64,000 nt of DNA from Gemmatimonadaceae bacterium. GTDB lineage: Bacteria > Gemmatimonadota > Gemmatimonadetes > Gemmatimonadales > Gemmatimonadaceae. Position numbers and translations under genes: made by a program. Each line of letters begins with the position of its first letter. Positions within the stretch are counted from its first letter, which is position 1. The notes under the pieces were generated by a model. That model did not search any database. It had not been told where the DNA came from and saw only the letters and a program-made list of their open reading frames with translations. The stretch lies in NCBI GenBank assembly GCA_031396725.1, contig JANNLH010000198.1:2685-66684 (forward strand), read 5' to 3'. This document shows, one piece after another, positions 52,631 to 53,835 of this stretch.

Positions 52631-53835
52631 CGGACGGCCCCCCCATGCTCGGACGCGAAGCGCGCCCGCAGGCGGGTCGTGAGCGTCGGCCCGAAGTACA
52701 CCTCGGAGACCGTGTCGTCGAAGATGAGGTCGCGCACCGGGCCGGAGACCTTCACCGCGCCGTCGAACATGATGTACGCGCGGTCCACGATGTCGAGCGT
52801 CTGCTCGACGTTGTGGTCCGAGATCAGCACGCCGATGCCGCGATCCTTGAGCGACGCGACGATCCCCTGAATGTCGTTGACCGCGATCGGGTCCACGCCC
52901 GCGAACGGCTCGTCGAGCATCATGAACTTCGGCTGCGTCACCAGCGCCCGCGTGATCTCGAGCCGCCGGCGCTCGCCCCCGGAGAGCGCGAATGCCTTGC
53001 TCTTGCGCAGGTGCTTGATGCTGAGCTCGTCGAGCAGCTTCTCCAGCCGCGCGGTGCGCTCGGCGCGCGACAGCGGCAGGGTCTCGAGGATCGCGAGGAT
53101 GTTCTCCTCGACCGTCAGCTTGCGGAAGATCGACGGTTCCTGCGAGAGATAGCCGATGCCGCGGCGCGCCCGCTGGAACATCGGCATCCGCGTGATGTCC
53201 GCCCCATCGAGCGTGATGCGGCCGGCGTTCGGCGGGATCAGTCCCGCGATCATGTAGAACGTGGTCGTCTTGCCGGCCCCGTTGGGCCCCAGCAGTCCGA
53301 CGATCTCCCCCTGCTTCAGCTGCAGCGCCACGTCGTTCACCACGTTCCGCTTGCGATACGTCTTGACCAGCCCCTCGGCCGCGAGCACGCTGCTGCCGGC
53401 GATCCGCTGCTGCGGCGCCAGCGGTGTGCGGCGCCGCACCGTCGGCTGCTCCCCGGTGCGCTTGAGCGCCTGCTCGAGCGTCGCGGCATCGACGGCGCGC
53501 AGCGCGCGCAGTTCGGCGGCCAGGCGCACGCGCGCGCCATCCGCCGTCAGCTCGCCCACCGGCTCGATGGCACCCGAGGCCACGAGGCGCGGCAGCACGA
53601 CGCGGGCGACGTGGTCCCGGACCTCATCCACGCTGAGCCGCCCGGCCTCGGCCTCCGCATTCCGACCCTCGGCGCGGATCGCGTCGAGGTAGTCGGCGCG
53701 ATACGCGAGGGCGACATCATGGAACGGCGCGCTCCCGCTGGCGTCGGCACGCTGGCAGAGCGCCAGCAGCGCGAGCGCGGCCGAGCGGTCGCCGCCCGTG
53801 AAGCGCGCCAGGAGTTCGGGACTCAGCTCGGTCAT
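52627..53835 (-). CDS. lptB: LPS export ABC transporter ATPase LptB with ~148-aa N-terminal extension
   Basis: Core 'GLLGPNGAGKTT', 'GIGYLSQEPSIF', 'LSGGERRRLEI', 'LDEPFAGVDP', 'SDHNV'; ATGA overlap with lptA at 53835. Confidence 0.9.
   Translation of the reverse strand: MTELSPELLARFTGGDRSAALALLALCQRADASGSAPFHDVALAYRADYLDAIRAEGRNAEAEAGRLSVDEVRDHVARVVLPRLVASGAIEPVGELTADGARVRLAAELRALRAVDAATLEQALKRTGEQPTVRRRTPLAPQQRIAGSSVLAAEGLVKTYRKRNVVNDVALQLKQGEIVGLLGPNGAGKTTTFYMIAGLIPPNAGRITLDGADITRMPMFQRARRGIGYLSQEPSIFRKLTVEENILAILETLPLSRAERTARLEKLLDELSIKHLRKSKAFALSGGERRRLEITRALVTQPKFMMLDEPFAGVDPIAVNDIQGIVASLKDRGIGVLISDHNVEQTLDIVDRAYIMFDGAVKVSGPVRDLIFDDTVSEVYFGPTLTTRLRARFASEHGGAVR

Follow-up and report, generated by a model that had tools for sequence, protein, structure and literature searches.

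The window, a stretch of 64,000 nucleotides from a contig of a Gemmatimonadaceae bacterium, carries on its minus strand four genes in the classical lptC-lptA-lptB-rpoN arrangement (Table 1). The genes are closely packed: lptC and the lptA-like gene are 4 nt apart, and the lptA-like/lptB and lptB/rpoN pairs overlap by 4 nt each. In the second overlap the ATG of rpoN and the TGA of lptB share an ATGA (52627-52630), placing lptB immediately upstream of rpoN, as the preliminary description of the locus had noted. The corresponding ATGA at the lptA-like/lptB junction implies a probable translational coupling of lptB to the gene before it.

Table 1. Features of the lptC-lptA-lptB-rpoN locus (positions are those of the window)
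Feature	Position	Strand	Evidence
lptB, whole gene, 402 aa	ATG 53835 to TGA stop 52627	minus	ORF list, sequence
OstA/LptA-like periplasmic gene, 472 aa, with a signal-peptide-like N-terminus	53832..55250	minus	ORF list; Pfam LptD_N, 27 bits; weak TIGR03002
ATGA start/stop overlap (lptB ATG 53835-53833, lptA-like TGA 53834-53832)	53832..53835	minus	sequence
Predicted N-terminal winged-helix-like domain, LptB residues 1-129	53449..53835	minus	AlphaFold2, Foldseek, GC3, dN/dS
Flexible basic linker, LptB residues 130-149, 'PTVRRRTPLAPQQRIAGSS'	53389..53448	minus	low pLDDT, charge, alignment
Canonical LptB ABC ATPase, residues 150-402 plus stop	52627..53388	minus	TIGR04406, Pfam ABC_tran, motifs
rpoN (sigma-54)	51143..52630	minus	Pfam Sigma54_AID/CBD/DBD; junction sequence
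lptC, 187 aa	55255..55818	minus	TIGR04409, 49.6 bits (cut-off 38)

The products of the two genes upstream of lptB have some features of their own. The lptA-like product gave only weak and partial OstA/LptA matches (27 bits each), and the upstream ORFs of the relatives encode 440-724 aa. The 472-aa 'LptA' of the window is about 2.5 times the size of the E. coli protein and could be a periplasmic bridge protein extended by several repeats or in some other way. The LptC of the window starts with a short hydrophobic stretch that ends in a lipobox-like VGAC. Most of the 29 Gemmatimonadota genomes examined have such a short hydrophobic N-terminal segment (12-21 residues), and in more than half of them it is followed by a lipobox-like Cys. 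The N-terminus of the Gemmatimonadota LptC looks like a lipoprotein or a signal anchor, unlike the long transmembrane helix of the E. coli LptC.

Judged from profile and motifs, the C-terminal 253 residues of the lptB product are a bona fide LptB and otherwise an ordinary LPS-export ATPase. In the NCBIfam profile search the 402-aa protein scored 351.2 bits with the TIGR04406 LPS_export_lptB equivalog (cut-off 240), residues 151-384 being aligned to model positions 2-236 of 239. The ABC motifs are complete, i.e. GPNGAGKTT (Walker A, G183), the YLSQE Q-loop at 229-233, LSGGE at 284, the MLDEP Walker B at 306-310, SDHN at 339 and the H-loop histidine H341; the pI of this domain is 9.5. The protein departs from the single-domain architecture of about 240 aa found in the LptB family in that residues 1-149 of its 402 lie outside the TIGR04406 model. 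The NCBIfam LptB models span 239-241 positions, in agreement with the earlier statement that LptB is normally a bare ATPase of this size. The E. coli LptB is such a bare protein of about 241 aa, whereas the LptB of the window has 149 extra N-terminal residues which form a predicted folded domain plus a linker. The two-domain architecture is a difference from the LptB norm and gives no ground to doubt the orthology.

The extension comprises 149 codons (53835-53389), which continue without a stop and without an internal Met into GTG 53388, followed by 'VLAAEGLVKTY' and the ABC ATPase. The open frame starting from ATG 53835, its ATGA overlap with lptA and the lack of an internal ATG had all been listed in the preliminary description, and they were borne out with 149 codons ahead of the canonical start. 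Since the GC content of the window is 70.6% and the lptB frame stays open for 835 codons, the openness of the frame is uninformative in itself. The extension might therefore be an annotation artefact, the true start being GTG 53388 and the upstream 447 nt an untranslated spacer that is open because of its GC richness. This would fit with the presence of GTG at the canonical position in this genome and with the absence of a strong Shine-Dalgarno sequence at both candidate starts. We consider it extremely improbable, and the comparative evidence already contradicts it. The GC content of the extension by codon position is 0.83/0.55/0.91, and the GC3 of 0.91 compares with 0.94-0.96 in lptA, the LptB core and rpoN, hence the codon usage is the normal GC-rich one that had been claimed. 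In a sliding window analysis the third-position GC signal switches frame exactly at the lptA/lptB ATGA junction.

As a negative control, the in-frame stretches upstream of the LptB start ('M(T)SVL...') were analysed in 11 Gemmatimonadota genomes which lack the domain. These stretches are open for up to 354 codons, and the spurious frames look different from the extension: their GC3 is mostly 0.42-0.65 (three exceptions, short or extreme, are at 0.73-0.83), compared with 0.76-0.94 in the ATPase domains of the same 11 genomes. The dN/dS values (Nei-Gojobori, ten pairs) are 0.02-0.42 for the domain and 0.03-0.20 for the ATPase domain, in both cases well below 1. Over 28 homologues 14 residues of the extension are invariant (D16, R17, S18, G34, R46, G57, G65, R66, L67, D70, E71, P82, R83 and L84), and a confident fold is predicted for it, which also speaks against a spacer. 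Since the GC3 pattern, the conservation of the peptide, the dN/dS values and the conserved start-stop overlap point in the same direction, the extension is, on these sequence criteria, real coding sequence under purifying selection and not a chance open frame.

The position of the translation start was approached by comparison of the related loci. The upstream gene could be identified at 72 related loci, and at 71 of these an NTG start codon overlaps the TGA stop of that gene (NTGA). The start codons involved are 27 ATG, 39 GTG and 5 TTG; CTG was never found. The N-terminal tail ahead of the invariant D16 is between 11 and 44 residues long, depending on the lineage, thus the NTGA overlap has been maintained through insertions and deletions. 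An internal start at the canonical position (V150, GTG in the window) was rejected as a conserved feature, since of the window and its 74 relatives, 75 sequences in all, only 36 have a start-type codon there. The remaining sequences have GTC, ACC, ACG, CTG, CGC, GAG and other codons, i.e. about half of the relatives have a non-start codon there, and SD-like motifs are infrequent at this internal position among the relatives. The start at the downstream GTG, which had been named as an observation that would overturn the two-domain reading, is thus not upheld. With NTGA overlaps at 71 of 72 loci set against start-type codons in 36 of 75 sequences, the upstream start is the sole translation option conserved across the group, and on the same comparison the whole 402-aa protein is taken to be translated from ATG 53835.

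The AlphaFold2 model of the N-terminal domain, calculated from the 28-sequence alignment, has a pLDDT of 89.2 and a pTM of 0.81. The predicted elements are, in the N-terminal half, the helices 6-13 and 17-29, the strand 35-37 and the helices 38-55 and 60-66; these are followed by the helix 69-87 (the 'recognition' helix), the strands 90-93 and 102-105 and the helix 107-129. In this model the segment 'VDEVRDHVARVVLPRLVAS' is the third helix, after which residues 90-105 form the wing as a beta hairpin; 'DEVRDHVARVVLPRLVASGAIEPVG' corresponds to helix 3 plus the first strand of the wing. The assignment as a winged helix (helix-strand-helix-turn-helix-hairpin) with one inserted short helix and with N- and C-terminal flanking helices seems reasonably secure at the level of the model. 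The preliminary description had seen a helical segment that ends in something reminiscent of a winged-helix recognition helix and wing; the predicted topology and the Foldseek matches favour the winged-helix reading, but the wing is not the end of the domain, as it is followed by the helix 107-129 and then by a disordered linker of about 20 residues.

The confidence of the prediction falls after residue 129, and the linker residues 130-144 have a pLDDT below 50 in the full-length model and 56-59 in the domain model. The full-length protein, modelled as a monomer like all the structures here, gave a pTM of 0.63 without a confident inter-domain orientation. These predictions indicate that LptB would consist of two domains on a flexible tether of about 20 residues. 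The linker follows a conserved TGE(H/Q)P cap motif, and its net charge is +1 to +3 in most of the homologues. It also carries a semi-conserved dibasic RR-x(0-2)-S/T motif (RRRTP in the window; RRTP, RRVS and RRLS in relatives), which could be a docking or a phosphorylation site.

The structural matches of the domain are weak and none is significant: the best Foldseek values in the PDB are E 0.16, prob 0.95 and TMq 0.49, those in BFVD E 0.10 and TMq 0.52. The identifiable proteins among these weak matches are mostly winged helices, i.e. ORC1/Cdc6, the MarR-type BpsR, AbfR, HpaR and MftR, Fkh1, MukE/F, the Roquin ROQ domain, Sir3 and phage MarR/wHTH proteins. In the MarR-type regulators a wHTH core is accompanied by flanking helices, as in the LptB domain, and in the MarR proteins these helices build the dimer. 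The LptB domain differs from them, however, in several respects. It has no MarR Pfam match and TM-scores of only about 0.3-0.4; it is acidic, a further short helix (60-66) is inserted in front of its helix 3, and it is not a stand-alone regulator. The best structural matches were obtained with the C-terminal winged-helix domain of ORC1/Cdc6 (prob 0.90-0.95, TMq 0.46-0.49), at 15-18% identity and with E-values that are not significant. That domain, too, is attached to a P-loop ATPase; in its case it comes after an AAA+ module and binds origin DNA, whereas the LptB domain precedes an ABC module.

A winged helix raises the possibility that LptB binds DNA, i.e. that the domain is a true wHTH and LptB moonlights as a transcription regulator associated with the membrane, the kds-lpt-rpoN operon being one conceivable target. 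The topology would be suitable, many of the Foldseek matches are DNA-binding proteins (MarR family, forkhead, ORC), and the gene adjoins rpoN. The properties of the surface argue against this. The domain is acidic in every one of the 28 homologues (pI 4.8-6.2, net charge -2 to -8; pI about 5.2 in the window). The most conserved patch (E63, G65-R66-L67-S68, D70-E71, R73, H75 and P82-R83-L84) covers the turn and helix 3, the face which contacts DNA in wHTH proteins, with acidic residues at the start of the helix, where D70, E71 and D74 are found. A basic recognition helix and wing fit for DNA contact are not present: the helix 69-87 has 3 K/R against 3 D/E, the wing 2 K/R against 3 D/E, and the wing, the most variable segment of the domain in the alignment, has no conserved basic residues. 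None of the Pfam HTH families matched the domain even at E <= 1. Thus the acidic domain, the acidic start of the conserved face and the variable wing speak against DNA binding and for a protein-binding surface. An acidic surface is not a strict exclusion of nucleic-acid binding, and from these features DNA binding is considered unlikely; a role of LptB as a transcription regulator would be very unlikely.

The distribution of the domain was studied at several levels. In a six-frame search the 149-aa peptide was matched in 40 of the 41 genomes that belong to the same genus and order, once per genome apart from three weak second matches. The main matches contain zero stops, most of their open frames have at least 400 aa, and the named records among them belong to Gemmatimonadaceae and Gemmatimonadales. 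In an even sampling of 201 genomes across the phylum Gemmatimonadota, LptB itself was found in 200, and the domain in 135 with a broader profile and in 120 with a narrow one. It is present in nearly all Gemmatimonadales, near-universally in three families of the order, and divergent forms occur in several sister orders of the class Gemmatimonadetes. The profiles missed two genomes (G141 and G134) that have recognisably similar extensions of high GC3. The domain is carried by the genome G097. The presence of the extension in orthologues, proposed earlier as a check, is therefore confirmed across an order and, in divergent form, across a class.

Within the same 201-genome sample the domain is absent from the other Gemmatimonadota classes, where the LptB open frame is 242-290 aa, and from particular genera of Gemmatimonadales within the families f1 and f2. 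The family of the window, which has otherwise a GC content of about 65-72%, includes two low-GC members without the domain, G117 (47%) and G221 (51%). G117 (locus L093) retains a tail of 24 residues, the last of which are the linker remnant 'RVAGSS', and G221 (L094) has a low-complexity tail of about 50 residues. This suggests that in these two the domain was lost during genome streamlining. From the profile searches the domain, as an LptB fusion, appears restricted to the class Gemmatimonadetes, single-copy and always fused, and to have been lost secondarily several times, in several genera, probably in roughly five or more independent events. Since it has been lost several times, it is accessory and not part of the core transport mechanism.

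No separate-gene version of the domain was found among the relatives; all the genome matches are in uninterrupted frames, mostly of at least 400 aa, so the possibility that relatives encode the segment as a separate, unrelated gene, which would have spoken against the fusion, did not materialize. When 1.84 billion cluster representatives were searched exhaustively with HMMER, only 186 matches were obtained. The short ones that were inspected are contig-end fragments running into 'SVL..GLVK.Y' or Walker A, or frameshifted or chimeric calls; the full-length fusions are presumably hidden inside ordinary LptB clusters. In a word-indexed search all 45 matches carry the ABC domain, and they are 389-432 aa long except for two (315 and 349 aa). 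In the public databases these proteins are named plainly 'LPS export ABC transporter ATP-binding protein'.

Residues 1-149 matched none of the Pfam families at E <= 1, the HTH and MarR models included, and none of the NCBIfam families at E <= 0.01. There was no sequence match in the PDB below E 0.5, and PADLOC was likewise empty. An LptB with an N-terminal extension, a winged helix or an accessory domain was not found in the literature searched, Gemmatimonadetes included. The domain family thus appears undescribed, as had been supposed, and the LptB of the window can be regarded as a real, conserved and lineage-specific variant of a well-known machine, whose putative function is discussed below.

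A single different architecture was found: P0192, a protein of 1339 aa with the domain at 345-469 and a TIR_2 domain at 866-988. This copy is 56% identical to the LptB N-domain of P0164, which comes from another lineage. P0192 originates from one 5.8-kb contig of the JGI metagenome 3300045391 and was not matched by PADLOC; possibly it is a protein of the defence type which captured the module. Since a copy sits in a TIR protein, the domain is portable, an autonomous module that presumably has a recognition function of its own.

The most likely role of the domain, by inference, is that of a regulatory or protein-interaction module on a tether. The reading that we favour, by a modest degree over even chances, is a two-domain LptB whose winged helix works by protein contacts and tunes the closure of the ATPase dimer. 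In this model the acidic winged-helix-like domain of about 130 residues would be joined to the ATPase by the disordered basic linker of about 20 residues. The two domain copies of the LptB2 dimer might self-associate below the ATPases through their flanking helices; alternatively, the acidic 'recognition' face might dock on the basic linker or on the ATPase. Either contact would tune the closure of the ATPase dimer, and LPS extraction would be adjusted to a cytoplasmic cue. Self-association or docking is plausible because there are two copies per LptB2, the flanking helices are MarR-like and the tether is about 20 residues long.

Concerning the partner surface of such a contact, the full-length monomer model yielded no confident docking. 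A docking surface was also looked for on the ATPase by comparison of the lineages with and without the domain. The 15 alignment columns which discriminate between them merely follow the phylogeny, and in the within-family losses G117 and G221 nearly all of the 15 still have the 'plus' residue; for this reason no docking surface could be assigned and this candidate was rejected. The idea that the domain substitutes for the transmembrane helix of LptC was rejected too, since the same type of LptC anchor is found in the genomes with and without the domain.

These observations bear also on the rival which is the hardest to separate from the favoured explanation, namely that the domain is an adaptor only, without effect on the ATPase cycle, which recruits another cytoplasmic protein to the Lpt machine. 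Such a protein may be a factor of LPS synthesis, of quality control or of proteolysis, or else a kinase that acts on the RR-x-S/T motif of the linker. The flexible tether without confident intramolecular docking and the conserved acidic face are compatible with an adaptor, and the reuse of the same domain in the unrelated TIR protein would fit the recognition of a third party. On the other hand, no candidate partner was found, and neither the ATPase residues of LptB nor the LptC anchor co-vary with the domain. We regard a pure adaptor as possible and somewhat unlikely.

The tuning of dimer closure can be compared, at the level of function only and by inference, with known ABC ATPases that have fused regulatory domains. 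In MalK, MetN and ModC an extra soluble domain is carried by the nucleotide-binding subunit, two per transporter, as here. Fused regulatory domains of this kind can hold or gate the ATPase dimer or receive a signal. The domains of MalK, MetN and ModC are of a C-terminal TOBE or ACT-like type, which dimerises beneath the ATPases and binds an effector, whereas that of LptB is N-terminal and winged-helix-like. Rv1747 of Mycobacterium tuberculosis carries N-terminal FHA modules on a disordered linker, and the window LptB resembles it in both the N-terminal position and the disordered linker. The known regulatory folds are TOBE, ACT-like or FHA, in contrast to the winged helix of LptB.

A more specific form of regulation would be a signal-responsive switch, in which an effector bound at the MarR-like dimer interface, or phosphorylation of the RR-x-S/T motif, gates the closure of LptB2. 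We hold this to be quite doubtful. If it were true, it would mean a direct cytoplasmic control of LPS export in this class, which is unknown in model bacteria, and the copy in the TIR protein would be an 'integrated decoy' or a sensor watching the same interaction.

The LptB2FG(C) complex is essential and is a major antibiotic target. To our knowledge, the coupling of the LptB ATPase to the LPS supply is known only from Proteobacteria, where the control is exerted through the transmembrane helix of LptC and the short C-terminus of LptB. The extension of the Gemmatimonadetes LptB represents a new domain family, without an entry in the copies of Pfam and NCBIfam that were searched. A class-wide folded domain on the ATPase that has been lost repeatedly is a natural experiment on the accessory control of LPS export, and since the cultured Gemmatimonas appears to carry the domain, the question would be experimentally tractable.
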